Source: Blasia pusilla | Taxonomy: Eukaryota | Assembly (NCBI GenBank): GCA_050084515.1 | Contig: CM114271.1 | Location: 23,312,001 to 23,376,000 of the forward strand | DNA: 64,000 nucleotides | Direction of reading: 5' to 3' | In this document: positions 21,532 to 54,556 of the stretch, one piece after another | Numbering within the stretch: the stretch's first letter is position 1 | Layout: each line of letters begins with the position of its first letter | Position numbers and translations under genes: made by a program | The notes under the pieces: generated by a model | Database searches by the model: none | What the model was told of the DNA's origin: nothing | The model's input: the letters and a program-made list of their open reading frames with translations, nothing else

Positions 21532-22046
21532 TGTCACGTCTTTTAGGATAGATTGGTGAGATCTAGTAGAGCGCCTTGGTGAGTAGTGGAGGACATCGCT
21601 GAGTAGGTTGAGGATGACCTGCTGGGGCCCCGGGAAACCTTAGAGAGCAGGTTTCCCCTTCGTTTCGGCTCATTTGGAGCCATATTGAGGAACTTACTAT
21701 TTTAGGTAAGTACCATCTTGAGTATATGATCGACTTTATATTTTAGGTAAGTGGCCCTTGACCTCCTACATCAGATCAAGAACCAAGGAGGTGACTTGGG
21801 AGAATAGGTTACCATGGAGAGAGCTTGGGAGAGGGGAGGGGTATACCTTAAGGAGAGAGAGCTTGAGAGCTCATTCTCTCTTTGTTGAACCTCTTGGCAT
21901 GAGGCGGCGGAGTTATGGTCCCTTGCCTTGTGAGTGTAACCCAAGCCTCTCATTAGGAGAGTGGGTTTGGTTTGACATGAGAGAGAGTGCACACCTTTGA
22001 GAGCTATGGTATGAGATGGTGTAGAGAGAGATTGGATCTAACTTTA
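21532..22046 (+). repeat. Family A terminal 'A' repeat (~515 bp)
   Basis: Highly similar to 26450-27047 and to the reverse complement of 49114-49628. Confidence 0.9.
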
Positions 22047-25000: not shown

Positions 25001-26449
25001 GGAGTTGCCCGACAGGGTGGTGGAGCTGCCCGTGGAGGAGGTAGAGTCCTACCACCTAGATGCATCGAGGGAGATGCTGGACGTGAGGCTAGGATGGCTG
25101 CTCAGATACATCAGCTACAAGAGCAGATTTCCACTATGGCATTCAAATTACCCGATGCCGGATCCGTGGCATCGACATGATATGGAGCAGCCAGAGATAT
25201 GGAGGATCCTGATTGGATGTGTGGGGTTGCCCTGATGGAGGCTGCCAGAGTTCGATGGGTCCTGATCAGAGTTCCTGGAGAGTTGGTGACGTTGTTGGTG
25301 TGCAAGCATGGAGGGCGATGAGAGAAGCGAGTGCGAAGACTCCTATTGTTGATGTCGAGCACGTTGTTGGGGCCGGCCACCATTGTGTACCGCGCTCCTT
25401 TATTTTTTGCTTCCGATGTTATGACGTTGGGGGGTACGTCCACTGAGGCTTTTCAGTTGGCCGCTACGCTATGTGAGCGTGGAGTTGGAGTTCCTGCATC
25501 ACGTTCAGAGGTGATTGCAGAGGAGGTGATGGACCTGCCCTTGGAGCAGATGCTCGGGCCGTCCATGTCAGATTCATGGTAGGCTGTGACTGCTAGGATG
25601 GCGGAGATGCACGCTAGACCCGCGATAGAGCATGCCATGGCTTCTCTTGGTGCTGTGTTGCTGGAAAACCGAGGAGAGGTCTTCTAGTTGGTGAGTCCCG
25701 AAGGTAGAGCTTTTAGTCCGCAACGCGTCTTGTTGGATTCAGGAGCGCAACCCCTGATGTTGGGGAAAGCGTCATTCAGAGGATTGGGCTTGACAAGAGC
25801 CAATGTGGAGCGTTGTCTGTTTCGGACTCAAACATCCTTGGGTGGAGCGAGTACCACACATTATATCACCCGACAAGAGGTTGTGGTGAGTATTCGCCCA
25901 GGACATCCTACAGATAAGTACGTGGTGCGAGCCAAGGTGATAGTGACTCATGAAGAGTCCTACAACGTCTTGGTTGGTGGAGCAGTGTTATACCCGATGG
26001 GGTTTTCCCAGGACTATTGGGAAGAGTAAGCGTCCTACAGACCAGAATAGTAGTTAGGTGATGGGCGCCTTAGCTCATTACCCATTCAATTCATACGTGC
26101 ATTGATCGAGCAATGGCCATGAGAGATGGCGACCTTGGCTGCATTTAGCAGTGCCATCATTTGGCCTAGTGATTTGATTGAGGGACATGTCCATGCAGAG
26201 GATACTCCCCTTCCTGAAATTTCTATGGAGAGGAGTGTTATGGTAACCGCATCATTATGTGGAGGAGAGGTGCCCCTGTGGGGCTCGACTGAGGAGCTTC
26301 AACGATTGGCAGATGAGCACGTGCAAACCGCGTGGAGCGAGGTGTTTGCACTGGAGCATGACGGGCCTAAGGAACCTGAGGTAGCAATGAGTGCTACGAT
26401 GACACCCTTGGATACCACATCCATTGTGTGCTGTACCCCAGAGGAGGGT
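21532..26449 (+). mobile_element. Ty3/Gypsy family A, copy A1: 5' terminal repeat, long UTR, gag and protease; ends where copy A2 inserted
   Basis: Starts TGTCACGTC; gag GPRRFSGAVGTIELHDF; knuckles CWSCGGAHHQRDC and CDYC..YGHTCARC; protease VLLDSGAQPLMLG (25688-26029); colinear with 26550-31555. Confidence 0.9.
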
Positions 26450-29400
26450 TGTCACGTCTTCTAGGATAGATCGGTGGGATCTAATAGAGCGCCTTCATGA
26501 GTAGTGGAGGACACGCCCAGTAGGTCGAGGGTGACTTGCTGAGGCCCTTGGATAGATTGGTGAGATCTAGTAGAGCGCCTTGGTGAGTAGTGGAGGACAT
26601 GCTGAGTAGGTTGAGGATGACCTGCTGGGGCCCCGGGAAACCTTAGAGAGCAGGTTTCCCCTTCGTTTCGGCTCATTTGGAGCCATATTGAGGAACTTAC
26701 TATTTTAGGTAAGTACCATTTTGAGTATATGATCGACTTACTATTTTTGGTAAGTGGCCCTTGACCTCCTACATCAGGTCAAGAGCCAAGGAGGTGACTT
26801 GGGAGAATAGGTTACCATGGAGAGAGCTTGGGAGAGGAGAGGGGTATACCTCAAGGAGAGAGAGCTTGAGAGCTCATTCTCTCTTTGTTGAACCTCTTGG
26901 CATGAGGCGGCGGAGCTATGGTACCTTGCCTTGTGAGTGTAACCCAAGCCTCTCATTAGGAGAGTGGGTTTGGTTTGACATGAGAGAGAGTGCACACCTT
27001 TGAGAGCTATGGTGTGAGATGGTGGAGAGAGATTGGATCTTACTTTACAAAGAGAGAATGAGAGAATGAGAGAGTGAGAGAGCTTCATGGGGGAGCTCGC
27101 TGGTCACTCGCTGTTTTTGCAGGTTGGGGACCGTATTCCCCGTTGAATGGCTCATGGGAGTGCTCACCGGAGCAAGGGCTGCTTTCATTACTCTTTACAT
27201 TTGTCGATTTTTCGTGTGGAAGAGTGGCGCGCGGAAGCGCTGCCCAATTTCTGATAGGGATTGAGTATGGGGGCGGGTTGCCCCATGCTGGTGCTCTCAA
27301 GAGCACCATGTAGCTTGCTGATTTGTATTTTTACAGATGTTACATTTTCGTTGGGAGAAATCAGCGCGGGAGCGCTGCCAAATTTTGTGTAGGAGAAAGA
27401 GACATTAGGCTTTACGACAGTCCCCATCAGTTTTTACTGAAATGTCCGATTCTAAATATTTTTTGATGGTAGCATAGATCATGAAGCTGTGCACGCTGTG
27501 CAACAAACAAGTGCACAATTTGGAGTTGTGAGCAAAAAGTTATGGGCAATCTTGTAAAGCTGCCATTGCTAGGCGATTTTTAGGGTTAAATCGTGCAAAC
27601 CCTAAATCAGCCGCCACACCGGCGGCGGCCGTCGCCATCATGGTCACCGTCAATGGTTGATGGTCAACCGTCACCGTCATCGGTTGGCCATCACCATCAG
27701 CGGTCAACCGTCACTGTCAAGGGTCCACCGTCCATTGTCCACCCTTTGGGTGCCATTGCTGCCATTACGGAGTGGAGGGTCTTCCATGACGTTCGTTGAT
27801 TCCTTGACTTGCGTCGCCACCACGTACTTTGTTTTGGCCGCCACCGTCATCATAGTTTCTTCATCAACCAGTGAAGGCAAATGACCTCCGGTTATGGTAT
27901 TTGAGTTTTGATTTCATGCTGCTATGTTGTGATTGGTAGCCGCTCGACAACGATCGAGTATCGTGCCGTGACGTTTGTAGCCGCAACGCGCCGCTGATTG
28001 CTGCGCCGTGCCGCTCGTGGCCGCACCGCACCATCTCGATCGCGGAGCCGCACCGTCATTGTGGAGCAGAGTGTGGGATTATTATTGATTGAGGAGGGTA
28101 TGCCGCCGAGTGCCGCATCCCACCATCGAGGGCCGTGCCGTTCGTAGCCGTTCCGTGCCGCCTGCAACGCCGCACCGTTCCGCTGGGACCGCACTGTCTA
28201 TCGAGGAGTTTTGAGCAGCATCAGTACGGGAGGAGTATGACTTGCTGATTGGAGGAGTTGTCTCCATGATCGAGTTGGGGTCGAGATTTGCAGTTGCTGA
28301 GGAGCGACATCGACATGTGTTCAGGTTACCCATTCTGGTCCTTTACCCTGCACGTGTGAGGGATTCTGGGATTTATTTGGGGATATTGGGTGTGTGGATG
28401 CTGAGAGCATCATTTATGTATGTGGTTTAGGGGACATAGACGTGTGTGGGATGTCGGGAGTTGAGGGTAGGTTGTCGATGAGATGATAGCTTGGTCGATT
28501 TGCCGCACCACGCCGCGTGTTGCCGCACGTTACACGCCTCGGGAGAGAGAGTGTAGATCGAAAGTGCCGCATGTTTGGGATGAGTGATTGAGGGATTCCT
28601 CACGAGGTTCAGTGTGATCGGGTGAGAGGGGCACGAGGGTCATCACGGAGTCTGTTCGGGACTTTGAGAGGTGAGGTGGTGAACCCGAGAGTAGCTCTAG
28701 AGGTTTTACGCGGAGTGGCGCGAGGTTTCGAGGGTCTCCACGTGAGGGACCACCTCGACCTCCTTCTGTGTCATCGTCAGACGAGGGGGAGGGTGTAGAG
28801 GAGTTTGTGAGCACATCGCCACACATTGTGAGTGGTCCTACCAGTTGGGCGTACAAGATGGACGACCGGGGTAGAGGACGCAGAGGTTTTCAGTGCGATG
28901 AGGGGCACGATTGAGTTGCACGATTTTATAGCGAGTTTAGAGTTGGTGCGACTCCTGGGCCGGCCAGAACTCTAGAGAGTTCAACCCGTTTCTGACATGG
29001 AACGGTATGTTCTAGCATTTAGAGGGGGCGCCCATGGACGAGTACCATGAGTTCTCTCAGAGATATGCATGTGAGATCGAGGCGTGGAGGCTCTACTATG
29101 ACCCATATTATGTGTCATGGACGGAGCTGTTCCCAGATGAGAAGGAGGAGTCAGGAGAGGCTACTGCCTCTTCCACTAGTGACGTTTTAGGAGGGGTCAC
29201 TCGCATGGGAGCAGTTGCACCGTCTAGTCGCGTTCGTCTCAGGTTCAACCCTCTGGTTGAGTTCTTTGCTGAGTTGAGGGCGAGCTACCAGGGGGTACGG
29301 ACGGAGAAGTTGCGGAGCATCCACGACTTCCAGAGGCACTCGGGTGAGAGTTTGCGTGAGGCTTACACTCGCTTGCGCCGGTTGATCAACGTCACTCAGG

Positions 29401-32400
29401 GGGTGATAGAGGCTCAGGCTATCCAGTCATGGTATGCGATGCTGGACCGGACCCTACGGACACGAAAAGTGCGGGGGGGCTTCTTATGAACACCTCCCCA
29501 CGTTGAGAGATGTTTTTAGGACCGCCGAGAACATTGAGCGCAACATGGCCGAGGAGAGCGTAGCCACCATGGGATCTGGCGAGAGCAATCACGATTATGC
29601 ACCACCTGCGGCAAAACGTGGACTCGAGATAGGTCGATGCGGGCACCACGAGCTCAAGGAGGATACCGAGAGGCCGTGCCACAGAGACCTGCGCCTTCAT
29701 ATGCGGCTTAGCAGCAGCCGCCTACTTTTACTTGTTGGTCATGTGGTGGAGCCCATCATCAACGCGATTGCACTCATCAGGGTCATGGACGTGTGCCTCA
29801 GCATGGAGGAGGAGATGGTGCTGCACCAGGAGGTTATCTGTGTGACTATTGTCAGAGGTATGGTCATACACGCGCCAGGTGTTTTAGTTTACATCCTGAG
29901 TTACGTCTGGACCGAGGGCCAGAGAGGGCACCAGAGCGAGTAGCCGGTCCGGGTGGGCCTAGAGATCGTGCACCAGGTGGTCCCGTTGGGGGACGAGGAG
30001 CTGGAGTTGCCCGACAGGGTGGTGGAGCTGCCCGTGGAGGAGGTAGAGTCCTACCACCTAGACACGCCGAGGGAGATGCCTTTGGGACGTGAGGTGGGAT
30101 GATCGCCGATGGGAGATACAACAACTATAGGAGCAGATTGCCGCTATGGCATTGAGGTTACCCGATGTCGGATCCGTGGCATCGACATCATATGGAGCGC
30201 CGAGATCCGGAGGATCCTGGATGGATGTGTGGGGTTGCCGGATGGAGGCCGCCGCAAGACGCTGGCGTGGAGCGGTGCAGAGTTGGATCCACGAGGATGG
30301 GGGAAGATGAGATGCACTAGGCTTCCTCAATCTTTCACGTTGTCGAGCGATGAGGACCCCATCGATGGGTCCTCATCAAAGTTCTTGGAGAGTTGGTAAT
30401 GTTGTTGGTGTGCAAGCACGGAGGGCGATGGGAGAAGCGAGTGTGCGACTCCTATTGTTGATGCTCGGGAGGGCATGTGTCGAAGCACGTTGTTGGGGCG
30501 GCCACCGGGGGTACCGCACTCCTTTATTTTCCGCTTCCGATGTTGTGGCGTTTTTACGCCGCTGGGCTTTTTGGCTGGCGCTTCACTATGTGAGCGCGGA
30601 GTTGGAGTTCTTGCATCACGTTCAAGGTGATTGCAGAGGAGGTGATGGACCTGCCCTTGGAGCGGATGCTCGGGCCGCCCACATAGATTCATGGCAAAGT
30701 CTGCGGTCGCTAGGATGGCGGAGATGCCCGCTAGACCCGCGATAGAGCGTGCCATGGCTTCTTCTGGTGTTGTGTTGCTCGATAACCGAGGAGAGGTCTT
30801 CCGGTTGGTGAGTCCCGGAGGTAGAGCTTTTAGTCATGGCAGCGCCTTGTTGGATTCAGAGCACAACCCTTGATGTTGGGGAAAGCGTCATTCAGAGGAT
30901 TGGGCTTGACGAGAGCCGATGTGGAGTGTTGTCCATTTCGGATCTGAGACATCCTTGGGTGGAGCGAGTACCACACGTATATCACTTCGATAGGAGGTGG
31001 TGGTGAGATTCGCCGGGACATCCTGAGATGATTCCGTGGTGCGCGCCAAGGCGATAGTGACGATCTTTGAGTCCTACAACGTCTTGGTTGGTGGAGCGAT
31101 GTTATACCCGATGGGGTTTTTCCTGGATTCTTGGGAGGAGTCGGCCCTCTGAGACCAGGATGGCGTCGGTGATGGGCGCCTTAGCTCATTACCCGTTCGA
31201 TTCACAGTGCGATGATCGAGCAACGGCGAGAGAGATGGCGACCTTAGCAAAGATTTAGCGGTGCCATCACTTGGCCTAGTGATTTGATTGAGGACATGTC
31301 CATGCAGAGGATACTCCCGTTCGACATTTCTATGGAGAGGAGTGTTATGGTAGCGCATCATTCCGTGGAGGAGAGGTGCGCCTGGGGCTCGACTTAGAGC
31401 TTCAACGACGATTGGAGATCTTGACGTCGGCACCGCATGGAGCGAGGCGTTTGCACCAGAGCGTGACGGGTCTGAGGAACCCAAGGTAGCGGGGAGTGCT
31501 ACGATGACACCCTTGGATACTACACCCATTGTGTGGTTTACCCCGGAGGAGGGTATTCGAGTGTTAGATCTCTTTGGAGGGATGTCATGACCATACGGAT
31601 TATGTCGTAGAGTATAGTGTGCTAGTAGAGGCCATTCCTTATGTAGGACCGTGGTGGCTTGGTAGAGATGCGGTTCCATACATAGGGTTGGGGGTTACTC
31701 AGTTGGGGGTGAGTTTCCCAATAGGGCCCACTCTTAGGTTGGAGGATATAAGGTGGAGTGCACTCAAAGAATAGTCAGTTCTTTGAGTTGAGCCTGTTGC
31801 GTTGGGAGTTAGCCTTGGTAGTGAGTAGAGCTCTTGGCTATGGTGTTTCCCGCAAGCTTTGATCTAGATTCTCCCATCGTGGAGTGGGTTTGGCTTGATT
31901 GTATGTGATTGTAAACGTGTTTTATGACAGTAGGTCTTTCACGGATTTCACTCAAAGAAGCGGAGTAGATCGATGGTAGCCGATTGTAGATCAAGAGGGA
32001 TCTGGTTAGGGTTGATTGTGTACTCAGCCGTGGATGTTCGCGGCTTGTTGCCTATGTTGGAGGTGTGAATCAGGTGCGTGGTTGCTTGGGAAAGAAGCGC
32101 CTTGCTGAGAACTTTCCAACGCGCTGTAGATCGCCGGATTTCGTCAAGGGAGTTGGAAGTTATCAAGCATTGAAGATTCTGGTTCGTGTTCGACAGTTTT
32201 CTGATGTGGAGAGCTTGGAGTGCGGAAGCTCTGTTGAAGTTCATCCAGATCGGGTGAGAGGTTCCTATTGCTACTTGTATTTTGATCTCATGTGAACCTA
32301 TCAGCTCGAGTGCGTGGAGCATTGCGGATTTCTGCGTGCATGAAACTTGGCGGAAGCGCTGTCGGATTTGCGGTTCTAGAGGTGTATGGACAGCAAGTTT

Positions 32401-33327
32401 GTCTGATTTTTAGCTCGGAGTACGGAGCTCGGTTGTAGCTGAGTTTTTGTGGGGAGATATCTATGGTGGTCAATTGAATTTTGATCGAAACAGATTTGAT
32501 TTTGGTCACGTATTTGTGAAGTAATTTCTGATCGAAATTTTGCGGACTAGCTCAAGGTCTGGCTATGGTGGACAGCGGATCGGAGGGGCTGGTTGGTTGG
32601 TGACTCGTTCATTGTTGGAGACGCCTATCCCGTTGGGGGCGCCCTGGTTGGACCTCACGCCCAAGCAAGCAAGCTTGCTTGCTTGGGCGTGAGGCAATTT
32701 TTGCAGGATTTGGGATTTGAGTTTTGCATAATTGGTCACCCATCTTTGGGCTATTCTGCCTGGAGGACGCTTAACTGCTGAGTTCTTCACTATGCCAGTG
32801 TACAGACTGTTGTAGCTCATTTGGTGCTATTCGGAGATGTGTTAGGTGCTTTATGCATCTCAAGTTTTTGGTTGATGTACCTCTAGCGCATAGTACGGTG
32901 TAGCCTCTCCATGCAGGTGATATTTTCAGGTGCTGCGAGTTCGACTAGCACGTCATCGACCCGGCGGAGTAGCTATTGCGTTAGAATTGTGTGGTGGGTT
33001 TTGTGGATTCAGAGGGCACCATGTTTGGTGGATTGTGTTACCTTGATTTCCATTTGCGATTGGAGGGTTGTCGTTGGACTTCCTGTGTTTGGATCCCCTC
33101 CATCGTGCTTCTTGCTTGCGCGCCCATTGTTAGGGTTGACGCTGATTTCCAGAGTAGTGTTACTCCTGTGTGCTACCGGTAGTGAGGCTGGAGGGATGAC
33201 GAGTAGACTGTGGGAGACTTCTTGTGGTGATGACAAGTTAGGTTGCCTACACCCATAGCTAGTAGAGCTAGAATAGTATAGCGACATCCACGTCACTTGG
33301 TAATTTGGTGGGGGTGCGGCATCGACG

Positions 33328-34760
33328 TTGGTCATCACGGAGCTGTCGGGTGGTCTGGTTGGGGACCGTGGCGCGGACAGTGGTGGTTTCACACGGAGTG
33401 GATTTAGGTATCGGCTACCTTTTCCACTTCCGACGGTTGATGAAGAGGAGGACGAGGGTGTTCCAAACACCGAGTCTTCTACGTTGTTATCGAGTGTTGC
33501 AGCTCCATTGATTTGGGACATGGACGGTGGATATGGGGCCATGAAGGGCCCACGACGATACTCGAGTGCAGTGGGTACCATTGAGTTGGAGGACTTCATG
33601 CAGGAGTTTGATACGTGGTGTGATATGCAGATGTTGCGGAACGCCACGTTGTTTACACCCTTCTTGGCTTGGAAGGGGTTGTTTCAGCACTTGGAAGGAC
33701 CACCCATGGATGATTACCATGAGTTTAGGAAGGACCATGTTGCTGAGATTGAGGCATGGAGACAATATTGGTCTCCAGGCTATGTGTCTATCACCCATGG
33801 TGGTATTGGTAGTAGTGCTCCTACTATGCCACCCAGCCCGACGCTGAGTGGTAATGAGCACGAGCCGGAGTGGGGGTACCGGTGGGGGTACTAGTGGGGG
33901 TACTAGTGGAGGTTCTAGTGCCCCACCATTGTTTAGCCCGGTTGCAGAGTTCTTCAAGAGGTTGAAGAAGAACTATCAAGGAGTGAAGACGGAGAAGTTG
34001 AGGAATCTTCAGGACTTTGAGTGAAAGACTGGTGAGAGTCTTCGTGAGGCATACACGCGTATCATGCGACGCTTGATTTCGATTACCTGGGGTGTGACGA
34101 GGATCAGCGATCGATTTTGGTATGGGATCTTGGACAGAGATTTGCGCCGTAGGGTACGTGATGCTACTCTTATGAGTGATGATTCACCCACATTGACCCA
34201 TTTGTTTGCTCTATCTGAGAAGATTGAGCTTAACATGGTGAAGGAGAGAGTGGTGACATCCGCATTCAGTAGGGATACAACTACTACTTCTCGTGTTTAG
34301 CCGCCCACCTCACAGTCTCGTAGTAGTGGTGGTGGTAGTAGTAGTGGGAGTCGTGGGGGGTACACGCGACCTCAGTCAAGTCCTAGAGGGACATTTGTGC
34401 AGAGACCATTGCCTTCATTTGCTGCCCCGCAGCAAGGACAATCATGTTGGACATGTGGAGGTGATCATGTTAGGAAGTTTTGTCCCCAAGAGGATGGGAG
34501 ACGGACTTTGGAGGATGGGCCTCAATCGGCCCCAACTCAGTGTGATCATTGCGGGAGACTAGGTCATCCTCGAGAGCGTTGCTTTGATCTTCATCCAGAG
34601 TTGAGATCAGGCCGTGGCCGTGGTGGAGTAGCTCCGAGAGGCCGAGGTGGTAGAGGTGGTAGGGGTGGTAGAGGTGGACCAGTGGTTGGAGAGCCTCACG
34701 GTAGCTACCCCTACCACTACGGCAGAGTCGCCTACTATGGTCGCCAAGATTGAGCAGATT
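33328..34760 (+). pseudogene. Gag of element B1 with two zinc knuckles and an RGG tract
   Basis: GPRRYSSAVGTIELEDFMQEFDTWCD; CWTCGGDHVRKFC; CDHCGRLGHPRERC; RGRGG repeats; stops and frameshifts. Confidence 0.85.
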
Positions 34761-36149
34761 GGAGCAGGTTGGCTACCATGGCTTGTATCCAAGATAGATC
34801 AGGTTTGGGAGCAAGGGCTTCCACCTCTTATGGAGGGGATGATCTCTCTTATATGGCGAGTGCAGCACAGGTTGAGGCATCAGCTGCAGTTACGAGAGGA
34901 GCCACTCGAGCGTCAGACCCACGTGGTGCTACTGTGGAGTTGGACCCACAGAGGGTGAGGGGGAGGCGGTGCCAGGCTTCCCAATCATTCTTGTTGTCCG
35001 AGGTGCTTAGGACTCCATCCATGGTTCCCACGCTGACCTATTGAGCCGGCAGTGGGGATCGAGGCATCTACATCGCGTGTAGTAGACACGGATGCAACAT
35101 CCAATGTAGTATTGCGGATGGCAACGGTGTTGGGATCCCCATTGTTTTCGCCACGAGCCGATGGCTTTAGGAGTTGACTTAGCTCTTGTATTTGATTAGC
35201 GACCACGTTGTGTGAACGTGGGGTGTTCTTGCTACACGTGTTGAGGTGGATGAGGGTGTTGCGGTGGAGCGACCCTCTATGTCGAGTAGCATTGAGTACC
35301 GGTGCTACTTGGCAGGTGCAGCGCTAAGATGGATGCATTACCAGCCCGGCCAGCCATTGATCGTGAGAGGCTTACACCTGGTGTATGTATGTTGGACAAC
35401 CGAGTGGGATCTTTGATTGGTGAGTCCTACAGAGGTGTATAGACCGGATAGAGTCTTGTTAGACTCGGTGCCCAACCTTTGATGTTGGGAAAGGCGGCAT
35501 GTATTGGTTTGGGTATTCGGAGGTCGAGCTTGAGCCTTGCCCATTCCAGATTCAAACATCACTTGAGGAGCCAATGATAGGTCTCAATTCATGACACGGG
35601 AAAAGTTTTTCTGATTGAGACTAGATCATGCGATTGATAGCTCCCGGTTGGGAATATCTCGGTAGTCACATCACCGTAAAGTCGTATGATGTACTAGTTG
35701 GAGGAGCGATGATTGTACCCGATGGGTTTTCGGATGGATTCTTGGGACTGAGACAACGTCTTATAGACCAGGTTGGCAATCCGGGATGGACGTATGAGCC
35801 AAGTTCCTGTGAGATTTATTTTGGGGCTCGACCAGAGGGTCTTCCCCAACAAAGATTAGCATATGTGGCTGGTTTTAGTGGAGTAGTCACTTGGCCAAGA
35901 GACTTTTGGAGGGTAATGTTTTACGCTATGGATTCTCCTGCGCATGAGGAGGTAGAGGAGGTCCCTATTTTTGCAGCAAATGGCATCCTCATCGTTGGAT
36001 GTGCCACTTTGGAGTTCAGCGGTGCACTAAGGCAGAGGCGATCGCCTAGTGCAGAGGCTTGGTGTGAGGTGTTATACCTCACAAGGAAGAGGAGGCCCCA
36101 CGGCGGTCTCCTACTACTGGCCTAGTTGGTTATCCCTTTGGATACTACA

Positions 36150-37120
36150 CCCATTGTATGGCAGTATCCGCCGGAGGGCATTTGTGTGTTAGATCTCTTT
36201 GGTGGGATTAGCACTAGTTTGGCGGCAGTGTTGCAGGCCGGTATTCCTGTGCGGAGATACGTGTATGTGGAGCGAGATGAGACGGCCGAGAGAGTCTCAT
36301 CCCGACATATTGGTCAGTTGATGCGGAGATATCCTGAGTTGTTGCCGCCATCAGCTATTCGTGGGTACCAGCGTGCTTTACCATCACACATTGCATTGTT
36401 GGGGGCGCAGGACCTTGAGAGGGTTGGTCTTGTGGATTTGGTGATTCTTTGGATGGCCATGTCGTGGTCATACACGTCTTTGGTCGTGGTGAGGGATTAC
36501 ATGACCCTAGGTCTCGATTGTTTTGGGAGATGTTACGGGTGTTACGACATCTTCAGTTCATCGAGCACGTGCTCAGCTTATATTCTCGAGAATGTTCCAT
36601 TGTTGGGTGACACTCGGACCCGGATGATGGCGAGTGTTCATGAGGTGCGGTCTTGATTGGACCAACGTTGTTGTTGGATGCGCTTGAAGTTGGCTCGCGA
36701 TGCACATCGCCCACGCTTGTGGTGGACAAACTTGTTGCCTAGGAGTTTCTCGTCGAGCATATGATGCAAAGGCGGGATCCTCGCCTTACAAAGTGGATAG
36801 TATCTTGATATCTTGGCGACTTTCTCAAGTGGTGAGGGTTATTGATCGGTCACCCATGGCGTGGTGAACCGTGTGGGCCACCTAGGATGGCACTACCCAC
36901 ATTTGTGAGTTTTCCGTGTCACATGCCTGAGGGAAGGTGGTCCGGCTTGTATGGGATTCTCATGGCGGCGAGTTGGTGGAGCCTAACGCTGATGAGAGAG
37001 AGCATGCGATGGGATTTACATCTTGGCGTGGGGTTGCTTCTATTTCTAAGGCTTCACGACGTCATGTGTTGGGGTCAGCCATGGACCTGAATTGTTTGAC
37101 TTGGATTTTGAGTCTTGGTA
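36150..37120 (+). pseudogene. C5-cytosine DNA methyltransferase domain (DNMT3-like) inside the Gypsy pol region
   Basis: Motif I VLDLFGGIST; acidic motif II YVERD; motif IV VDLVI..GWPC (ggatggccatgt ~36451); SRLFWEMLRVL; motif VI YILENVP; motif VIII HRPRLWWTN; motif IX EPNADEREHAMGF; motif X RRHVLGSAM. Canonical order, with frameshifts. Confidence 0.9.
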
Positions 37121-37364
37121 TGGCGAGCGTCGACTTCGGACTATGTCTGTGGGTCTTCCACCCCTTGTAATGAGCTCGATGGCTACCGGGACGGTAGAGG
37201 CATCGGCTGGGGGCGAGGAGAGTAGTATTTTGCATCCTTGGAGTAAATGGGATGTAATGGTTGGGCATGTGGAGTTGGTTGCTCATGCTGGTAGAGGAGT
37301 TATTTGCTCAGATGATGGTGTAGCTAAGGGTGTATCATCTTGTGAGGGGGTTGCGTAGGAGCCA

Positions 37365-38830
37365 ATGGCATCATCCTCTCCCTCTAGTATGCCAGTGGAG
37401 GAGACTTGGGAGCCATTACTTGGGCCCAAGCTTACGGGAGGTGAGAAACGACGCTTGACACAGTTCCTAGGTGCTTATAGGAGTTGTTTTGCCTTTAGCA
37501 TGAAGGAGTTGGGTTCTCTGGTTGGACCCGGTATACGGATTGATTTGGCTAGTGATACGCCAATCTTCCGTCGTCCCTACCGATATAGTGATATGGAGAG
37601 GGACCTGATTCAGAGTAGGACGTTGGACCTTTTGGAGGCTGGATTAGTGGAGTTGTCGCATGGAGAGTATGCATCAGCCACTGTCATGCTTGCTAAAAAG
37701 GATATGCATGGCAGCTACACGGATAGGCGGATGTGTGGAGATAACCGTCCTATCAATCGGCAAACCAAGGCCGATAGGTATGCCATGCCTACACCTGAGG
37801 AGATCTTTGATGTGGTGGGACATGCAAAGATTTTTAGTACTTTGGATCTTCGGGCAGGATACCATCAATTGCCGATTCGGGAGAGTGACAAGGCCAAGAT
37901 AGCATTTTGGGGTGTCAACTCTCATGGCAAGGATTGTTTGTACTAGTGGAAATTCTTACCCTTTGGGTTGAAGAATGCACCTGCCGAGTTTCAAAGAGTG
38001 ATGGGACGGGATCCTAGGGGTTGGATTTTGTTTGGTGTTACATTGATGATATCTTGGTGTTCAGTAACACGGTGGAGGAGCATCAGATACATTTGCAAAT
38101 GGTGTTTGAGCGTTTGAAAGCTCATGGTCTACGTTTGCATCCAAGAAAGTGTAAGTTCTTCCATGAGGATGTTGAGTACTTGGGTCATATGATCTATCCA
38201 GGTGGTTTGGGAGTTTAGCAAGCAAAGGTGGAGGCTATTGCACTTATTCCGCGTCCGGTAGATGTGAGTAGAGTTCGAGCATTCATGGGATTGGCGAACT
38301 ACTATCGAGGTATGTGAAGGGATTTAGTGCTATGGCAAAGCCTTTGAACCAATTGCTGAAATCAGATCAAGAGTGGCAATCGGGGGAGATGATCGGGAGA
38401 GAGCTTTTGTGGAGCTTAAGGCCCGGTTGGTGGCGGCGCCTATCTTGAGGAGACCTATCGAGGGCGCCCATTTCGATTACACACTGATTGGAGTAGGTTG
38501 GGACTTGAGCGGTGTTGACACAACATGATGATGAGCACATGGAGTTTGTGGTGGCCTATGCAAGTCGTTCGAATAATGGATGGAGTCGCGCTATAGTTCA
38601 TATGAGGGAGAGTGCTTGGCAAGAGTGTGGCTGTGGCACACTTTAGGTGTTACTTGTTTGGCACACGTTTACCCTTGTTCTGATCACCGGCCGCTCAAGT
38701 GGTTGATGGAGTCGGACAAGCTTACAGGGAAGCTTGCACGGTGGGCTCTTATCTTACAAGAGTATGACTTCGGGTGGTACATAGACTGGAGTTGCCAACC
38801 TTGATCTTTGATGGGTTGAGTAGGAACCCA
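37365..38830 (+). pseudogene. Gypsy reverse transcriptase and RNase H of B1
   Basis: PIFRRPYRYS, RMCGDNRPIN, FSTLDLRAGYHQL, PFGLKNAP, YIDDILVFS, VAYASRSN, YSSYEGECLA, DHRPLKWL, ARWALILQEYDF. Confidence 0.95.
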
Positions 38831-39189
38831 TGTACTAGCCAAGAGGATACAAGCGGGGCTAGATGGCATGGCAAGGGTGATGAGGAGATGGTGCTAGGTT
38901 GGCATGCATCCGCCTTTTATGTTGGTTAGGGGTGGACTCTAGTATGGAGGACCACATGATATCTTACTCTAGTCAGAGGGTAGATGGCCAGCCTTCAGAT
39001 CCTAAGGTTGGAGATGGTGGTACGGATCAGCGTGATATTCATGATGATGCGTTGGTGTTGGAGTTCCTACGGACCAGTAGGGTGCCAGGCATAGTGAGTG
39101 CCAAGGAGCGAGACCGTGTTCTTCAACGTGCTAAGAGGTATCGATTGGAGGGAACACATATTCTCCGCGTGTGGGAGGATGGTAGAGTA

Positions 39190-40473
39190 TGAGTAGTGCC
39201 ACATTTGGCTCAGAGAGAGCGCATTGTGCGACATGCCCATGAGGAGTTGGGACATTTTGGGGTAAAGCGTACGTATAGCTTACTCCTTGGCCAAGATTGG
39301 TGGCGTGGCATGCATACTCAGTGCAGCGATTGGTGTCACGTTGTATGGTTTGTGACCGGGTGAGGGCATCATTTAATGCCCTACACCACAATTACACCCT
39401 TGCCTATTATGGGGTTGGGTTACCGTTGGATGTGGACTTTGCGGGACCGTTATCGTTGGTATCACGACATCATCGATATGTGTTGGTGATGGTGGAGCAC
39501 TTCTCCAAGTGGATTGAGTTGGTGGCATTACGGACAAGGCAAGTGAGGGAACGGCGTATGCGTTTGGATAGAGTGCTTAGTCATTTTGGTGCACCACCGG
39601 TGAAGTCTTGACCGACCAGGGTACAAAGTTTTAGGGTGAGTTTCAGGTCTTGTGTGACAAGGCGTTGATTGATCATCGAACCACGTCTCGAGATCATCCA
39701 GAGGCGGATGGTTTGGCTGAGCGTGTGGTTTAGACGGTGAAGAGGGCATTGCGCAAGTATGGCCTACAGAAGGGGCATCTTGGAGACTGGGATATTCAGT
39801 TGCCATGGTTAGCTATGGGGTATAGGTTAGGATCGCCAAGCATCCTTGGCTTCCTTCTCACCTTATTTTTACATTAAACGGCCGAGATCCAGACTTGCCA
39901 GCAGCAATTCGTCGGGAGTCTAGTGAGGTGGTGAACCTTGATGACCCAGAGATGTGGATGAGGGTGTGTTCTCAGCGGGCGGAGCTCTTTCGAAGAGTTA
40001 TGCCAACAGCCTTTGAGAATCTTGCCATTGCTCAACATAGAGATACATTGTGGTATGCAACCACTCGGGGTGGAGGTTATGGACCATCGATTCGTAGGTT
40101 CCATGTGGGGGACTATGTCTATTTGCAGCAGATTGCACCGACAACGTTGGATGTGACGGCAGGCCGCACTATTTTACGAGTGCGCGAGGTGTTAGCTTCT
40201 GGAGTTCTCATGTTGGAGGGTCGTGATGGAGTTGTTTGGAAGGACCATGTGCATAATTGTGCGCCATGTCATCTTCCAAATGTGGATGGTATTGTTGACC
40301 CAAGCTTAGCCATGATACGTGCTAGCTTGAGGTGCATGTTGTGTGGGTCTGCTGGTAACGCAGCCCGTATGTTGGTGTGTGATCGGTGTTCTAGGGGTTG
40401 GCAAATGATGTGTTTGACTCCACGTTTGGATGTCGTTCCTATTGGAAGGTGGGTTTGTCCTCGATGTACTTAG
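39190..40473 (+). pseudogene. DDE integrase with C-terminal PHD finger (B1)
   Basis: HEELGHFG...CMVCDR (HHCC); VDFAGPL; MVEHFSKWIELV; ADGLAER; PHD CMLC...MLVCDRCSRGWQMMCL...PIGRWVCPRC at ~40333-40470 (usual His is Gln). Confidence 0.92.
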
Positions 40474-40646
40474 GAGAGGTAGATGACTTGATCTTTGCAT
40501 GATATGGATTACAGATGTGCGACTAACGATGGGGCAACCTAGCACCCGGCCTTCTGATTCGGGCACCCAAGAAGGTGTATAGCATATAGTAGATGTATAG
40601 GACTACTTGGGAGTTAGAGGGACCTAACCGCCAGTTAGGGGGGCAA

Positions 40647-41226
40647 GTTGTGGTACACTTGCGTTTGTGGATACTCTCGTCTATGTTATGTACGTATGTG
40701 AGTATGGTATATCAGCGATGTATGTTGTATGACGATGTGGATTCGCACCACAGCTGTCATGACCATACGGATTATGTCGTAGAGTATAGTGTGCTAGTAG
40801 AGGCCATTCCTTATGTAGGACCGTGGTGGCTTGGTAGAGATGCGGTTCCATACATAGGGTTGGGGGTTACTCAGTTGGGGGTGAGTTTCCCAATAGGGCC
40901 CGCTCTTAGGTTGGAGGATATAAGGTGGAGTGCACTCAAAAACGTCGATTCTTTGAGTTGAGCCTCATATGCGTTGGGAGTTAGCCTTGGTAGTGAGTAG
41001 AGCTCTTGGCTATGGTGTTTCCGCAAGCCGACCCCAGATTCTCCCATCGTGGAGTGGGTTTGGCTCGATTGTATGTGATTGTAAACGTGTTTTATGACAA
41101 AGAGGTCTTTCACGGATTTCAGTTGTGGTACACTTGCGTTTGTGGATACTCGTCTATGTTATGTACGTATGTGAGTATGGTATGTCGGCGATGTATGTTG
41201 TATGACGATGTGGATTCGCACGGCGA
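40647..41226 (+). repeat. 3' split direct repeat of B1: B(40647-40752)-GC-A(40755-41121)-B(41122-41226)
   Basis: Both B copies start gttgtggtacacttgcgtttgtggatactc; junction reads ...gcaccACA GC TGTcatgacc. Confidence 0.92.
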
Positions 41227-41230
41227 GGTG

Positions 41231-42130
41231 ATTAGCACGGGTTAGCTCTTTGCTTTTGCAAGCAGGAGTGCGAAAGTCTGAAATACTTGTATGTGGAGAG
41301 TGATGATGTTTGAGGCGCGTCTCACTCGACATGTGGCGCAATTACGCCTACATTTTCCCGACTTATTGTCTGCGTCCGCGTCTGGGTACCAGAGTTCCCT
41401 ACCGAGGGATATTTTGTTGTTGGGGCGCAGGACTTAGAGCGGTAGGGACCATTGATTTGGTCATTGCTGGTTGGCCATGTCGGGGCCAATCGAGTCTTTG
41501 GATGAGGAGCGGGTTGGTCGACACTCGGTCCAGGTTGTTTTGGGAGATGTTGAGGGTCTTACGGCAGCGATTCTGGGAGCACTAGTCTCGTTCTCCACCC
41601 TACATTCGGACAATGTGCCGATCTTAGAGACTCAGTCACGGGTCGTGACGAGTGCTCATCAGTGCGTGCCTGGATCGGCCCAAGAAGTTGTTCTTGGATG
41701 CGGCGAGTGTAGGTTCTAGAGCCCATCGCCCGCGTCTATGGTGGACCAACTTGGTGCCCCATGCGGTGTTATGGAGGGCGTATGCAGAGTGGAGCGCCCC
41801 TCCCTTTGTTAGTGGATTCCATTTCGATCCGGTCGCCGATCATAAAGTGAGGCACGATGATCGACCACCGCTGAGTGTGGTCAGGTAGGCCAGGCGCGGG
41901 CGCCTTGCCCACGTTGTGAGTTTTCCGCTTCCTATGCATACAAGGAGGCCGGTCCTGGCTTGGTTTGGGATGACCAGGTTCAACGGTTGGTGGAGCCCAA
42001 CGCCGACAAGAGAGAGCGGCGATGGGATTTCCCACAGGAGTGACGGCAGTACCATCGAGTGTCGAGGCATCACGATGCCATGTCTTGGGTCGCGATGGAC
42101 CTGAACTTCTTGACATGGATCCTCGGCTTG
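41231..42130 (+). pseudogene. C5-cytosine methyltransferase domain of copy A2 (continues from 31545-31582)
   Basis: IDLVIAGWPCRG, SRLFWEMLRVL, DNVP, LDAASVGSRAHRPRLWWTNL, VEPNAD..MGFPTG, SRCHVLG; many frameshifts. Confidence 0.88.
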
Positions 42131-42469
42131 GGAGTGGCCGGCGGCGTCGTATGAGATCGCGACAGATCACAAGTTGCGTTGGTGAGCCCCATGCTTACCG
42201 AGACGGTGGAGTGGAGGCGTGGTCGGGCGAGACCCGAGGAGATCTACGCACCAGGGAGATCGGGAGAGACACCCTTGGACTTCTTGGGATGTTTTGAAGG
42301 TACGCAAGGAGATGATAGCCACAACATCGAGCGTGGTTTGGGCACGCACGTGGAGGAGATCGAGAGTTTGCGATTGGTCGCAAGAGAGTGGCCAAGTGTT
42401 GTTGTTTGAGACGGGCTTGCACCATAGCAACCACCGATACCCGCGCCGAAGAGTCCTACCGTAGTCACA

Positions 42470-45292
42470 ATGGAGACTTGGGAGCCAGATATGGGCCCTA
42501 AGTTGACAAGAGGAGAGGGGCACCGAATACATCAGTTCCTCAGGAGTTATAGGAGCTGCTTTGCGTTTAGCATGGAGGATTTGGGTACGCTGAAGGGACC
42601 GGGGATCCGCATTGAGTTGTCGAGTGATATGCCGATCTTCCGACGACCCTACAGGTACAGTGATATGGAGAGGGCTCTGATTCAAAGTAGGAGCCAAGAC
42701 TTGGTCGGAGCAGGACTAGTGGAGATGTCGCATGGGGAGTATGCATCTGCCACTGTCATGCCCGCCAAAAAGGATGTGCATGGCAACTGGACGGATAGGC
42801 GGATGTGTGGAGATTACCGACCTATCAATCGGCAGACGAAGTCCGATAGGTATGCCATGCCCACCCTTGAGGAGATCTTTGATGCGATTGGTCACGCAAA
42901 GGTCTTCAGTTCATTGGATTTGCGAGTTGGATACCATCAGCTGCCTATCAGATTGGAGGACAGGCAGAAGAGGACATTTTGGGGCATCGATCCTCACGGG
43001 AAGGATTTTTGTACCAGTGGCGATTCTTACCATTTGGGTTAAAGAAGGCCCGGCTGAGTTTCAAAGGGTCATGGAAAGGATCTTGGTTGGTCTGGATTTT
43101 GCTAGGTGTTATATTGATAACATCGTAGTCTTTAGCACCACGGTTGAGGAGCATGAGCGACATCTAGAGGAGGTGTTTCAACGATTGCAATTACATGGGT
43201 TGAAGCTACATCCAGGCAAGTGCAAGTTCTTCTATGACCAGATTGAGTACTTGGGTCATACAATATACCCAAGGGGCCTTGGTGTTCAGCAGACAAAGGT
43301 AGAGGCTATCTCACGAATTCCACACCCTACAGATATGAGCCGTGTTCACGCATTCATGGGATTGGCGATCTTCTATCGGCGGTACGTCAAGGGATTCAGT
43401 TCGATTGCGAAGTCGATGACCTTGGTGACCAAGGTGGATCACAAGTGGCACTGGGGGGATGAGCAAGAGCGAGCAATTTAGTTGCTTAAGGACAGGTTGA
43501 CGTCCACGCCCATCTTGAGGAGACCGATCAGGGGGGCGTCCTTTCTAGTTGCACACAGATTGGAGCATGTTGGGGCTTGGAGCGGTGCTCACCCAGCATG
43601 ATGATGAGGATAAAGAGTTCTTGGTGGCTTACGCTAGCCGCTCAAACAACATTGCAGAGGCAAAGTATAGCTCGTATGAGGGTGAGTGCTTGGCTGCGGT
43701 GTGGGCTGTCGCGCATTTTAGGTATTACTTATTCGGAAATCCCTTTACCATTATCACTGATCATCAACCACTGAAGTGGTTAATGGAGTCCGACAAGCTT
43801 ACAAGGAAGCTTGCGAGATGGGCTCTGTTGTTGCAGGAGTATGATTTTTAGGTGGTACATAGACCTAGAACGCTCAACCAGGATGCAGATGGGTTGAGTT
43901 GTAACCCATGCTCGAGTCAACGAGATGCGATTGGAGCTCGATGGCATGGAGAGAGTGATGAGGAGTTAGTGTCAGGATGGCACGCGTCAGCCTATTTAGG
44001 CATGTTGGCTATGGAGAGCCAGAGTGTGGAGACTTTGATGGCGAGGTCTAGTGGAGAGTCCTTGGATCCCGAGGCCAGTGAGGAGACGACAGATGGCCGG
44101 AGATATTCATGATAATGGAGTAGTCTTGGAGTACCTTTGGACAAGCAACGTTGCAAGCACCATGGATGCTAAGGAGCGGGATCGATCCCTAGCGGGCCAG
44201 AAGGTTCCGTTGGGAGGGGACACATGTTTTGAGGGTTTGGGAGGATGGCAGAGTACACGTAGTGTCGCATCCTTCGTAGAGAGCATGACTAGTGCAACAT
44301 GCCCATGAGGAGTTGGGTCAATTTGGGGTGAAGCGGACGTGCACCTTATTCCAGATTCAGTATTGGTGGCGAGGCATGCAGACTGACGTTCAACAATTTG
44401 TTGCTAGATGCATGGTGTGTGATCGGGTCCGAGCATCGTTCAATGCTCCGACTCCACAATTGCATCCATTACCGATTATGGGCTTAGGCTATAGATGGAG
44501 TTTGGATTTTGCAGGACCTTTGCCTTTGACAAAGCCTCAGAGTTGTTATGAGTTGGTGATGGTCAAACACTGCTCGAAGTGGATCAAGTTGGTTGCATTG
44601 CCTGACAAAGCGAGTGAGGGAGTAGCTTATGCCTTCCTTGACAAAATGCTGAGTCATTATGGCGTACCGACTGAGGTGTTGACAGACGAGGGTACCAAGT
44701 TTCGCGGTGAGTTCCAAGCCTTGTGTGATCAGGCGCTGATCAGCCATCGCACGACTTCGCGAGATCATCTTGAGGCGGATGGATTAGCGGAGAGAATTGT
44801 GCAAACGGTGAAAAGGGATTTACGCAAGTATAGCTTGCAGAGAGGTCACCTAGGAGATTGGGAAATCCAGTTGCCATGGTCGGTGATAGGATACAGATTC
44901 ATCAGGCAAGCATCCTTAGCGTCTTTTTCACCGTACTTGCTACTTTATGGCCGAGAGCCAGATTTACCTGCGGCCATTTGTGGAGATGCAGGTGAGGTGC
45001 TGCACCTTGATGACCTTGATGTATGGATGTGAGCATGTTCTCAGAGGGCTGAGTTGTTTCGGAGAGTGATGCCCATGGCGTTCGAGAACTTGGCGATTGC
45101 ACAACATCGGGATACGTTGAGGTATGCGACTATTCGGGGTGGTGGTTATCGACCAACTATCCGGAGGTTTCATCAGGGAGATTATGTCTATGTGTAGCAG
45201 ATGGCACCGACAACGTTGGATGTGACTGTAGGGCGCACTATCCTGAGGGTGCGTGACGTTTTGCCATCCGATGTTCTCTTGCTGGAGGGATG
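42470..45292 (+). pseudogene. RT-RNase H-integrase of copy A2, truncated before the PHD region
   Basis: RMCGDYRPIN, LDLRVGYHQL, YIDNIVVFS, HTDWSMLGLGAVL, VAYASRSN, HAHEELGQFG..CMVCD, SLDFAGPLP, LTDEGTKF, ADGLAER. Confidence 0.93.
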
Positions 45293-45294: not shown

Positions 45295-48530
<3,236 letters not shown>

Positions 48531-48996: not shown

Positions 48997-49902
48997 TATC
49001 GTGCACATACACAACATACATCATTGTCACCGAACACACACACAAACACACACGATCCCATGCTAACTCATGGCATCCAAACAACGAGACAAGAAGTACT
49101 ATAATATCTGCAATAAAGTAAGATCCAATCTCTCTCTCTACACCATCTCACACCATAGCTCTCAAAGGTGTGCACTCTCTCTCATGTCAAACCAAACCCA
49201 CTCTCCTAATGAGAGGCTTGGGTTACACTCACAAGGCAAGGGACCATAGCTCCGCCGCCTCATGCCAAGAGGTTCAACAAAGAGAGAATGAGCTCTCAAG
49301 CTCTCTCTCCTTGAGATATACCCCTCCCCTCTCCCAAGCTCTCTCCATGGTAACCTATTCTCCCAAGTCACCTCCTTGGCTCTTGACCTGATGGAGGAGG
49401 TCAAGGGCCACTTACCTAAAATATAAAGACAATAATATACTCAAGATGGTACTTACCTAAAATAGTAAGTTCCTCAATATGGCTCCAAATGAGCCAAACG
49501 AAGGGGAAACCTGCTCTCTTAGGTTTCTCGGTGCCTCAGTAGGTCATCCTCGACCTACTCAGCGTGTCCTCCACTACTCATGAAGGCGCTCTACTAGATC
49601 TCACTGATCTATCCTAAAAGACGTGACAGCTGTCGTGCACATACACATCGCTACACAACATACATCGTTGTCACCAAACACACACACAACCACCCACAAT
49701 TCCATGCTAACTCATGGCATCCAAACAACGAGACAAAAGTACTAAAATATCTCCAATCGCCCCCCCTAGTGGTGGTTAGGTCCCTCTAACTCTAGATAGC
49801 TATCTATCCCTACCTACCATGACATACATCTCTCGGACGCTAAGAGCAAGAAGGCCTGGTGCTCATGTGGCCCCATCGTTAGTCGCCTTCCTATCATCCA
49901 TG
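48997..49902 (-). mobile_element. Isolated, inverted 3' end of a family A Gypsy: 3' UTR-B(49756-49631)-GC-A(49628-49114)-B(49113-48997)
   Basis: A segment matches 21532-22046; the two B copies match each other; minus-strand junction gcacgACA GC TGTcacgtc; the upstream motif matches the family B 3' UTR. Confidence 0.9.
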
Positions 49903-54154: not shown

Positions 54155-54556
54155 AAGTGCGGTAAGAGGAGAGGAAGAGAGGAAGAGAGGAGAGAGGAGA
54201 GAGGAAACTACCTTCAACTGAAATAGATACTTTTTTTTAAGAGAGTTTCCGTTGGATTGAAGAGAGGAAACTTTTTGTGTGAATTTTTTTGCACTTTTTT
54301 TCAGTTATTGGGTCCCATAAGTTTTTTTTTTTTTTTTCTCTTCCATATTTTGGCAACCCATCGAGTCCGAGGAGTTGCAAATTGCATAAAATATACAAAA
54401 CTAAAAAAGCAGTGGAATCATAAGTGTGGAATCAATCACTTTTTCCATCCAAGGTCTGGAAACAATCTACCATTTGCCCTATGCTGAATAGAGTTCAAAC
54501 TCAAAGTGAAGGTTCTTGAAAAATGAAAGTACAATCTAAAACCTCATTTTGCATCC

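Follow-up and report, generated by a model that had tools for sequence, protein, structure and literature searches.

We analyzed a 64,000-nucleotide stretch of Blasia pusilla DNA (GenBank assembly GCA_050084515.1, contig CM114271.1, positions 23,312,001 to 23,376,000 of the forward strand), here called the window and numbered from its first letter, and found in it a degenerate Ty3/Gypsy retrotransposon, E (31583-41225), whose repeats are arranged as A1...B1-GC-A2-B2 rather than as two whole long terminal repeats (LTRs). This layout is neither a chance product nor an assembly artifact, since it recurs in independently assembled metagenome contigs. An initial annotation of this DNA had taken it for a family property rather than a one-off, and a second family in the window together with the metagenome loci bears this out. 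Our best overall reading, to which we give an even chance of being right, is that E is a Ty3/Gypsy element of the Gypsy-Dnmt3 kind, in which the two ends made by reverse transcription would be joined and the integrase would reopen the molecule at an internal palindrome.

The split repeats of E are evident both from alignment and from direct reading of the sequence. A1 (31583-31950) and A2 (40755-41121) are 94.1% identical over 372 nucleotides (nt), and B1 (40646-40748) and B2 (41121-41221) are 96.1% identical over 103 nt. The final limits of the repeats (Table 1) were set by the family termini, with the GC spacer at 40753-40754. Nothing resembling B lies upstream of A1, and the sequence directly 3′ of A1 is ACTCAAAGAAG, not TGG. 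The joint between B1 and A2 reads CACCACA-GC-TGTCATG (the palindrome junction as quoted: ACAGCTGT; GACAGCTGTC), and a G-rich stretch, AGGGGGG at 40637-40643, lies three bases 5′ of B1. The initial annotation had thus described these features correctly: the A...B-GC-A-B order, the absence of a 5′ B and of a TGG-type primer binding site (PBS), the tract resembling a polypurine tract (PPT) before B, and the ACA-GC-TGT junction. All of the copies within the window are broken, and a single frame of E contains 136 stops.

E sits inside a related element, H2, because the 74 nt upstream of it (31510-31583) are 81% identical to its own positions 36135-36208, and this homology resumes after 41226. The insertion point within H2 is motif I of the methyltransferase. 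In RNA reads from paralogous copies of the diverged family H, position 31583 is followed at once by the sequence on the far side of E (joints of 8 and 13 reads), and the empty site reads GGAGGGAT|TAGCAC. Four of the four 5′ ends in the window open directly with A (E at 31583, E2 at 52027, H1 at 21532, and H2 at 26450), and both of the 3′ ends, those of E and H3, are B-GC-A-B. The diverged copy with the same 3′ layout that had been placed at 48997-49756 is H3; read on the minus strand, it shows a PPT, B_H (49756-49652), ACAGC, A_H (49628-49114), and a second B_H (to 48997), with GCACGACA-GC-TGTCACG at its B/A joint.

To extend the comparison beyond the window, metagenome contigs were scanned with a methyltransferase alignment, which yielded 80 loci, the best of 122, and repeats A and B of one of them (L012) were used as BLAST queries against all 80, with matches in 44. 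Nearly all of these relatives are decayed, only 4 open reading frames (ORFs) of at least 500 amino acids being present across the 80 loci. An A repeat followed by the internal region was found in 27 loci, and at all 26 of the junctions inspected, representing 22 independent flanks, unrelated flanking DNA gave way to TGTCATGACC or to a variant differing by 1 or 2 bases; B preceded A at none of these 26 metagenome junctions. The 3′ ends were of two types. The complete form, PPT-B-xx-A-B (xx being the two-base spacer), was present in L012/L074, L016, L052, L064, and L067 (five independent cases) and partially in L019, which ends at the locus edge, and L079/L080, which are partly deleted. In 14 other loci (13 independent), PPT-B was followed by flanking DNA, and this type outnumbers B-A-B by 13 to 7. 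A single insertion, represented by L020 (B only) and L064 (B-A-B), with a shared target duplication and flanks 98.8% identical over 3.7 kb, shows that the B-only ends are deletions between B1 and B2. Of the invariant layout that the initial annotation wanted tested, the metagenome loci upheld the 5′ A repeat throughout but not the B-GC-A-B 3′ end, B alone being found as well. Of 9 spacers between B1 and A2, 5 were GC, and the other 4 were AT, AC, or TC.

The ends of the relatives carry the marks of integrase-mediated insertion that the initial annotation had wanted mapped. Their termini are TGTCATG...GACA, all 20 of the inspected 3′ ends finishing with ...(G/A)ACA or GATA. Both ends lay within one locus for nine independent copies, and six of these had a perfect 4-bp target duplication (CATA, TGTT, TCTC, TGTG, TTCA, and ATTA); among the remainder, L008 matched at 3 of 4 positions, L039 showed no match, and L052 could not be scored, its left end being damaged. 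Copies with two complete LTRs, which would have spoken for an ordinary element, were not seen among the metagenome relatives or the window copies. A search for further A/B units on the minus strand of the loci found only one B, collections of viral contigs and genome contigs yielded no relatives, and an apparent double A start in L010 and L014 was rejected as a chance match.

The priming sites show which ends reverse transcription would make. A PPT block that runs up to the first base of B is common to E, H, and the metagenome family, and RNA and DNA reads of other families part from E at exactly 40642-40644. At the other end, the PBS directly 3′ of A1 has an exact complement inside A, and this complementarity always ends at the A boundary. 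Its length is 10 nt in E (TTCTTTGAGT), 12 in L010, 16 in L027 (ACATAGTTCTTTGAGT), 16 in H1 (CTCATTCTCTCTTTGT), and 14 in H2. The PBS of family H, CAAAGAGAGAATGAG (from 22047), and its complement differ in sequence from those of E and the L family (the metagenome loci), and the pairing is kept, i.e., the two sites covary. A TATA motif lies upstream of the complementary segment, as TATAAA at 27 to 31 nt in the L family, GATATAAGG in E, and TATATC in H, the last two at about 32 to 33 nt. When RNAs beginning at this segment were folded by minimum free energy, the first 10 to 16 bases paired with the PBS in all five cases. Judged from sequence, this arrangement is a putative case of Tf1-type self-priming, with the segment as the predicted transcript start. 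With U3 (the unique 3′ region) starting at B and U5 (the unique 5′ region) ending at the end of A, the repeat made by reverse transcription is B-GC-A. The joint between A2 and B2 is, correspondingly, an exact U5-end/U3-start junction in E, L012, L074, and L052 and differs only by point changes in L064, L067, and H3, 7 of 8 copies in all; it reads ...TTTC|AGTTGTGG in E and ...CTTTA|TTGCAG in H. In the eighth, L016, the joint holds 19 extra nt (10838-10856) resembling a nearby part of A, as would be expected of imprecise end-joining or of a template jump that slipped.

The termini that bear the target duplications are not these ends. They are the two halves of ...GACA-GC-TGTC..., which lies 107 to 117 bp inside U3. 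The halves are conserved between the families (TGTCATG or TGTCACG on one side and GCACGACA on the other), and the ends made by reverse transcription are not, being AGTTGTGG...TTTC in E and the L family versus TTGGAG...CTTTA in H, where CA is missing. Because the duplications flank the palindrome halves and not the ends made by reverse transcription, the integrated element is a circular permutation of a two-LTR complementary DNA (cDNA) and contains the joint of the cDNA ends.

The coding content places E among elements with a DDE integrase. Its pol order, reverse transcriptase-RNase H-integrase, is that of Ty3, as is that of H2, and both belong to Ty3/Gypsy; the short target duplications and TG...CA termini of the relatives agree with this assignment. 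The Gypsy reverse transcriptase and HHCC-DDE integrase reported initially were recovered in Pfam scans (RVT_1, RT_RNaseH, H2C2, and rve; Table 1), also in the H2 integrase (44289-45029; Integrase_H2C2, E-value 4e-13; rve, E-value 1.8e-10), and the reverse transcriptase-RNase H-integrase ORF of the relative L060 (domain order RVT_1, RT_RNaseH_2, Integrase_H2C2, rve) had Ty3 Gag-Pol (7q5b) as its best match (E-value 3e-86). Overlooked at that stage were a Dnmt3-type methyltransferase domain, a PHD finger, and the self-priming PBS. No Phage_integrase domain (PF00589, the tyrosine recombinase) was found in the Pfam scans of E, H2, and the relatives, the check for this enzyme that had been advised. 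The region conserved with the relatives, approximately 33.0 to 40.96 kb, corresponds to one collinear gag-pol with no further conserved coding region, and the 1.3-kb leader of E shows no conservation at the protein level. Among the first 15 ORFs of E that were scanned, 13 had no Pfam match; a zf-CCHC match was obtained in L060 and none in the gag remnants of E.

The methyltransferase domain lies between gag/protease and the reverse transcriptase in E and is split in the host H2 (31402-31587 and 41307-42300). The alignment shows the motifs DLFGGIS, GWPCQG, and ENVP, the second of which has been lost from E by a frameshift. An ORF of E (36126-36653) has 34 longer homologs, the named ones from Marchantia, Calypogeia, and Sphagnum, most of which are preannotated with PF00145; the domain is intact in several named bryophyte proteins. 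PF00145 is present in the relatives, upstream of RVT_1 in P0021, although the ORF of E itself has no Pfam match, and the best solved match for the methyltransferase of the relative P0001 was DNMT3A (E-value 6e-12). The C-terminal part of the integrase with its PHD finger has 115 homologs, including chlorophyte proteins, most with precomputed rve and PHD domains. The closest named homologs of this part of E are from liverworts (85% identity in Marchantia), and a Klebsormidium nitens protein with methyltransferase, reverse transcriptase, RNase H, and integrase, P0147, matched the same query pairwise (E-value 5.8e-22, 52% identity, 51% coverage).

Table 1. Positions of the repeats, priming sites, and coding remnants of E and of related copies in the window
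Feature	Position	Strand	Remarks
Repeat A1	31583-31949	+	Sole repeat at the 5′ end; starts with TGTCATGACC, the left integrase terminus; ends ...GGATTTC, the U5 end; aligned with relatives
TATA-like box GATATAAGG inside A	31745-31753	+	Aligns with TATAAA of relatives; putative promoter
Putative transcript start/self-primer TTCTTTGAGT	31779-31788	+	Exact 10-nt complement of the PBS
Self-priming PBS (putative) ACTCAAAGAA	31950-31959	+	Directly 3′ of A1; kept in metagenome relatives
gag remnants, several frames	33304-34750	+	Two CX2CX4HX4C knuckles in ORF 34301-34750; tblastn identity to relatives 71-74%
Dnmt3-type C5 cytosine methyltransferase, broken frame	36126-37167	+	Motif I VLDLFGGIS and ENVP present; PCQ lost to a frameshift
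Reverse transcriptase, two frames	37359-38215	+	RVT_1, E-value 3.4e-16 (38018-38215); 37359-37943 85.7% identical to L003
RNase H, Ty3/Gypsy type	38328-38801	+	RT_RNaseH, E-value 4.2e-11 (38577-38801)
Integrase: HHCC zinc domain, broken DDE core, C-terminal region	39193-40300	+	Integrase_H2C2, E-value 4.2e-11 (39193-39360); rve weak, E-value 0.0097
PHD finger at integrase C terminus	40333-40467	+	PF00628, E-value 2.3e-8
PPT region ...AGAGGGACCTAACCGCCAGTTAGGGGGGCA	40610-40645	+	Kept between families
Repeat B1	40646-40752	+	U3 start; ends in the right integrase terminus ...GATTCGCACCACA
Attachment (att) palindrome ACA-GC-TGT	40750-40757	+	Right terminus, 2-nt spacer, left terminus
Repeat A2	40755-41120	+	Starts with TGTCATGACC; ends GGATTTC
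Repeat B2	41121-41225	+	Joint ...GGATTTC|AGTTGTGG, U5 end/U3 start; ends GCACGGCG versus GCACGACA in relatives
H1, 5′ part of a family-H copy	21532-26449	+	Starts TGTCACG after flank ...AGGT; interrupted at the start of H2
H2, left part, family-H copy hosting E	26450-31582	+	Resumes at 41226-45289
H3, 3′ end of a family-H copy	48997-49756	-	B_H, ACAGC, A_H, B_H; right terminus GCACGATA
E2, truncated second copy of the family of E	52027-54156	+	88.3% identity over 2135-2138 nt; starts with TATCATGACC; unrelated flank upstream

We propose the following life cycle for E. Reverse transcription would follow the ordinary LTR scheme, with Tf1-like self-priming by the first 10 to 16 bases of the RNA, and would give U3-R-U5, i.e., B-GC-A, as its repeat. 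The integrase would ignore the ends of this repeat and recognize ...GCACGACA and TGTCATG... where they abut within U3. The two ends made by reverse transcription would be joined, the end of A to the start of B, as in a 2-LTR circle, and the integrase would nick both strands of one palindrome, producing recessed CA-3′OH ends with complementary 2-nt GC overhangs. Insertion of the freed ends with a 4-bp stagger would follow, and a circle opened in its 5′ repeat would give A-internal-B-GC-A-B. This would be the only form able to produce a whole-genome transcript, with the promoter in A1 and B-GC-A in the 3′ part of the RNA. The B-only 3′ ends would arise afterwards, by the deletion between B1 and B2.

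Several observations weigh against this proposal. No circle or other joined extrachromosomal form was observed. A closed 2-LTR circle contains two identical palindromes, and a second permutation, A-B-GC-A-internal-B, is therefore expected; it was found at none of 26 5′ ends (22 independent metagenome flanks plus the 4 in the window). The copies studied are all old, with A1/A2 identities of 86 to 94%. E itself has a mutated right terminus that differs from the family consensus and an imperfect target duplication, matching at 3 of 4 positions (GGGA at 31579-31582 versus GTGA at 41228-41231, or AGGGA versus AGGTGA). In addition, 25 RNA molecules from one run (X21) share a boundary at 40916 within A2, just upstream of the TATA-like box and 35 nt upstream of the predicted start, and this boundary, if it were a poly(A) site, would conflict with the terminal redundancy R. 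We had taken it, together with a drop in depth after 40848, for such a site and withdrew this reading because other families, whose match stops at the PPT, contribute much of the depth before 40646, reads internal to A can map to A1, and the direction in which the molecules begin is ambiguous. On balance, the route through a circular intermediate suggested in the initial annotation agrees with the geometry, namely, the B-GC-A unit, the A2|B2 joint, the ACA-GC-TGT halves, and the 4-bp duplications; the circle is something we infer, and the missing permutation speaks against it.

The single permutation could have more than one origin. The missing second form fits a closed circle only on the premise that it is lost fast by recombination between its A repeats (340 to 370 bp long and about 120 bp apart), leaving A...B, failing which the bias would be unexplained. 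Such a fast collapse would help explain the excess of B-only over B-A-B copies. Candidates for a polarizing step are cleavage of a near-end palindrome on linear cDNA followed by host repair, or a strand-specific end jump. Hemimethylation of one palindrome by the methyltransferase of the element was considered as a means of distinguishing the two and rejected, since a hemimethylated palindrome is unchanged on rotation.

The first of these candidates leads to an alternative that dispenses with a free circle. The integrase would cut the palindrome of the 5′ repeat on linear cDNA, and the outer ends made by reverse transcription (the 3′ end of A and the 5′ start of B) would be sealed by host end-joining to give A2|B2. 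The same anatomy results, the 19-nt filler in L016 looks like the product of imprecise end-joining, and if the integrase preferred a palindrome lying only about 120 bp from a DNA end, the lack of the other permutation could follow. However, the A2|B2 joint is exact, point changes aside, in all of the other copies that have it, and every insertion would have to pass through a chromosome break. We regard this route as unlikely.

We give the same low standing to a second alternative, in which reverse transcription alone would make a linear A...B-GC-A-B through template switches like those of DIRS and PAT elements, guided by B-GC-A, and the integrase would use its natural or flapped ends. In one possible version, the plus strand would jump from the 5′ to the 3′ end of the minus strand, as happens in hepadnaviruses. 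PAT and Ngaro share the A1-B1-A2-B2 order (PMC4157794 and PMC8969392, in the parts consulted), which suggests a replication logic independent of the integrating enzyme, and a strand-specific jump would give just the permutation observed. But given a PBS that follows A and a PPT that precedes B, no series of homology-guided switches leading to this product could be derived, and the terminal redundancy at the ends made by reverse transcription is at most 1 nt. Other schemes tried on paper placed another PBS or PPT at the palindrome or invoked priming from the upstream hairpin arm, snap-back priming, a rolling circle, or long 5′ flaps retained at integration; none of them gives A...B-GC-A-B.

An element of the DIRS order (like PAT, Ngaro, or TOC) with an overlooked tyrosine recombinase would account for the repeat layout and nothing else, and we consider it refuted: the Pfam scans detected no such enzyme, the conserved 33.0 to 40.96 kb form a single collinear gag-pol preceded by a leader that is not conserved as protein, and 4-bp target duplications are present, which DIRS elements lack according to the part of PMC8969392 consulted. 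That E is an ordinary two-LTR Gypsy element, rearranged or misassembled in this one instance, as its old, nested, and broken state might suggest, is refuted by the same layout in two window families and at five independent complete (and two partial) metagenome 3′ ends, with no two-LTR form seen.

The sequencing reads also provided information on the present state of the family. The region 31300-41500 is extremely abundant in the DNA runs, where the summed word depths of the contig reach tens of thousands (run X1), and in one RNA run the family is transcribed mainly from the sense strand. Between 38995 and 40001, 1005 nt are missing from 16 RNA reads, which have 9 different letters at the joint; the missing stretch has the ends CA..TA. 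The pattern resembles an expressed derivative that has lost most of its integrase by deletion more than it does an intron.

Within the window, the nested insertions of H2 into H1 and of E into H2 (junctions 26446-26450 and 31579-31583; the right H2/H1 junction lies outside the window) are only 29 bp apart in equivalent positions, that of H2 upstream, and both lie just 3′ of GGAGGG in the region of methyltransferase motif I; the near coincidence may be accidental or may reflect a target preference. Within the 5′ repeat A of H2, approximately 87 to 100 bp are duplicated in tandem (26461-26547 versus 26547-26633, 85%). Farther downstream, two direct repeats of about 800 bp that are 70.9% identical (45321-46095 and 46942-47779) surround a stretch with a long (GA)n-type run (RE-repeat ORF 46275-46673) and may be the LTRs of another old element that truncates H2. 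A minus-strand ORF (48052-48414) has a translation resembling, by eye only, a reverse transcriptase of the long interspersed nuclear element (LINE) type. The 2 kb at 8001-10000 stand out from surroundings of 29 to 47% G+C by their 69% G+C; the AT skew of this block is -0.75, and it is probably simple sequence.

Split direct repeats have passed for a hallmark of tyrosine-recombinase elements; their combination here with a DDE integrase and clean 4-bp duplications means that recombinase chemistry cannot be what produces this layout. The anatomy also separates the ends made by reverse transcription from those used by the integrase, which coincide in textbook LTR elements, and a plant system with many copies makes it testable whether LTR-LTR-joined DNA is a true integration precursor. 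More tentatively, and with a chance we put somewhat below even, we suggest that a Ty3/Gypsy lineage spread across green plants and algae (liverworts, mosses, Klebsormidium, and possibly the chlorophytes that have the same integrase-PHD module) obligately passes through an LTR-LTR-joined form like a 2-LTR circle, in which the DDE integrase cuts an att palindrome inside U3. If so, it would be the first natural case of a retroelement that integrates mainly through cleavage of the circle-junction type, and split direct repeats would signal, irrespective of the enzyme that integrates the element, that integration and reverse transcription are out of phase. On the practical side, LTR finders built around a pair of whole LTRs plus a PBS of the tRNA type will miss or misclassify such elements, which are very abundant in the genome. 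The possession of a Dnmt3-type methyltransferase and a PHD finger by the element bears, in turn, on the interplay between transposons and host chromatin.

The nearest known system is KnitGypsy-Dnmt3 of Klebsormidium nitens, which has a Gypsy pol and a Dnmt3-type methyltransferase in its polyprotein (de Mendoza 2018; PMC5890265) and whose repeats are said in the legend of Fig. 4c to have "the same structure as that of a DIRS retrotransposon" (PMC5890265). As far as the text section and this legend go, it shares with E both the Dnmt3-type domain in a Gypsy polyprotein and the DIRS-type repeat layout; the host lineage differs, and E has a PHD finger, none being recorded for K. nitens P0147. That text section and legend give no termini, target duplications, PBS or PPT, or mechanism for KnitGypsy-Dnmt3. 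In the literature searched, so far as the sources were seen, we found no account of the termini, target duplications, priming, or mechanism of Gypsy-Dnmt3 elements, some of which the supplements of PMC5890265 may hold; a full-text search for KnitGypsy-Dnmt3 by name returned only the original paper, and no Gypsy element appeared among the listed titles and abstract openings on split-direct-repeat retrotransposons. The novelty presumed at the outset is accordingly reduced: Gypsy domains with DIRS-type repeats were already in print in the portion of PMC5890265 consulted, and what the literature searched lacks is an account of the mechanism. E is a bryophyte-type addition to an already recorded kind of element, whose mechanism is unexplored in that literature. 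REM1 of Chlamydomonas, followed for a time as a PHD-bearing lead, was dropped as a chromovirus with a reversed, truncated integrase.

Elements of the Tf1/sushi and Tcn1 kinds have ordinary paired LTRs and a chromodomain. What they would have in common with E is a PBS complementary to their own transcript start (in E, a predicted one) and not to a tRNA. Self-priming has been predicted for the Tcn1 clade in mosses in the part of PMC6317226 consulted. The split direct repeats, A1-internal-B1-A2-B2, are those described for PAT/Ngaro-type tyrosine-recombinase elements in the consulted parts of PMC4157794 and PMC8969392, and TOC1 is a nonautonomous DIRS element according to Craig et al. E shares this layout with the PAT, Ngaro, and TOC types of the DIRS order, but these have a tyrosine recombinase and no target duplication, whereas the family of E has a DDE integrase, 4-bp duplications, a PPT, and a PBS. 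Insertion sequences of the IS3, IS30, and IS256 types, in turn, form circles with abutted ends and resemble E in having a DDE enzyme that acts on abutted ends with a spacer of a few bases; they are DNA transposons, with a spacer taken from flanking DNA and no reverse transcription. Retroviral integrases (those of prototype foamy virus [PFV] and HIV-1) cleave a palindromic LTR-LTR junction into 3′-processed ends, as described in the portions of PMC1180852 and PMC1905944 consulted, and a DDE integrase and abutted palindromic ends are common to these viruses and E, in which the cleavage is conjectural. The retroviral palindrome is formed where the two ends made by reverse transcription meet, and the route is accessory or debated there, whereas in E the palindrome lies inside U3 and the route would be obligatory.

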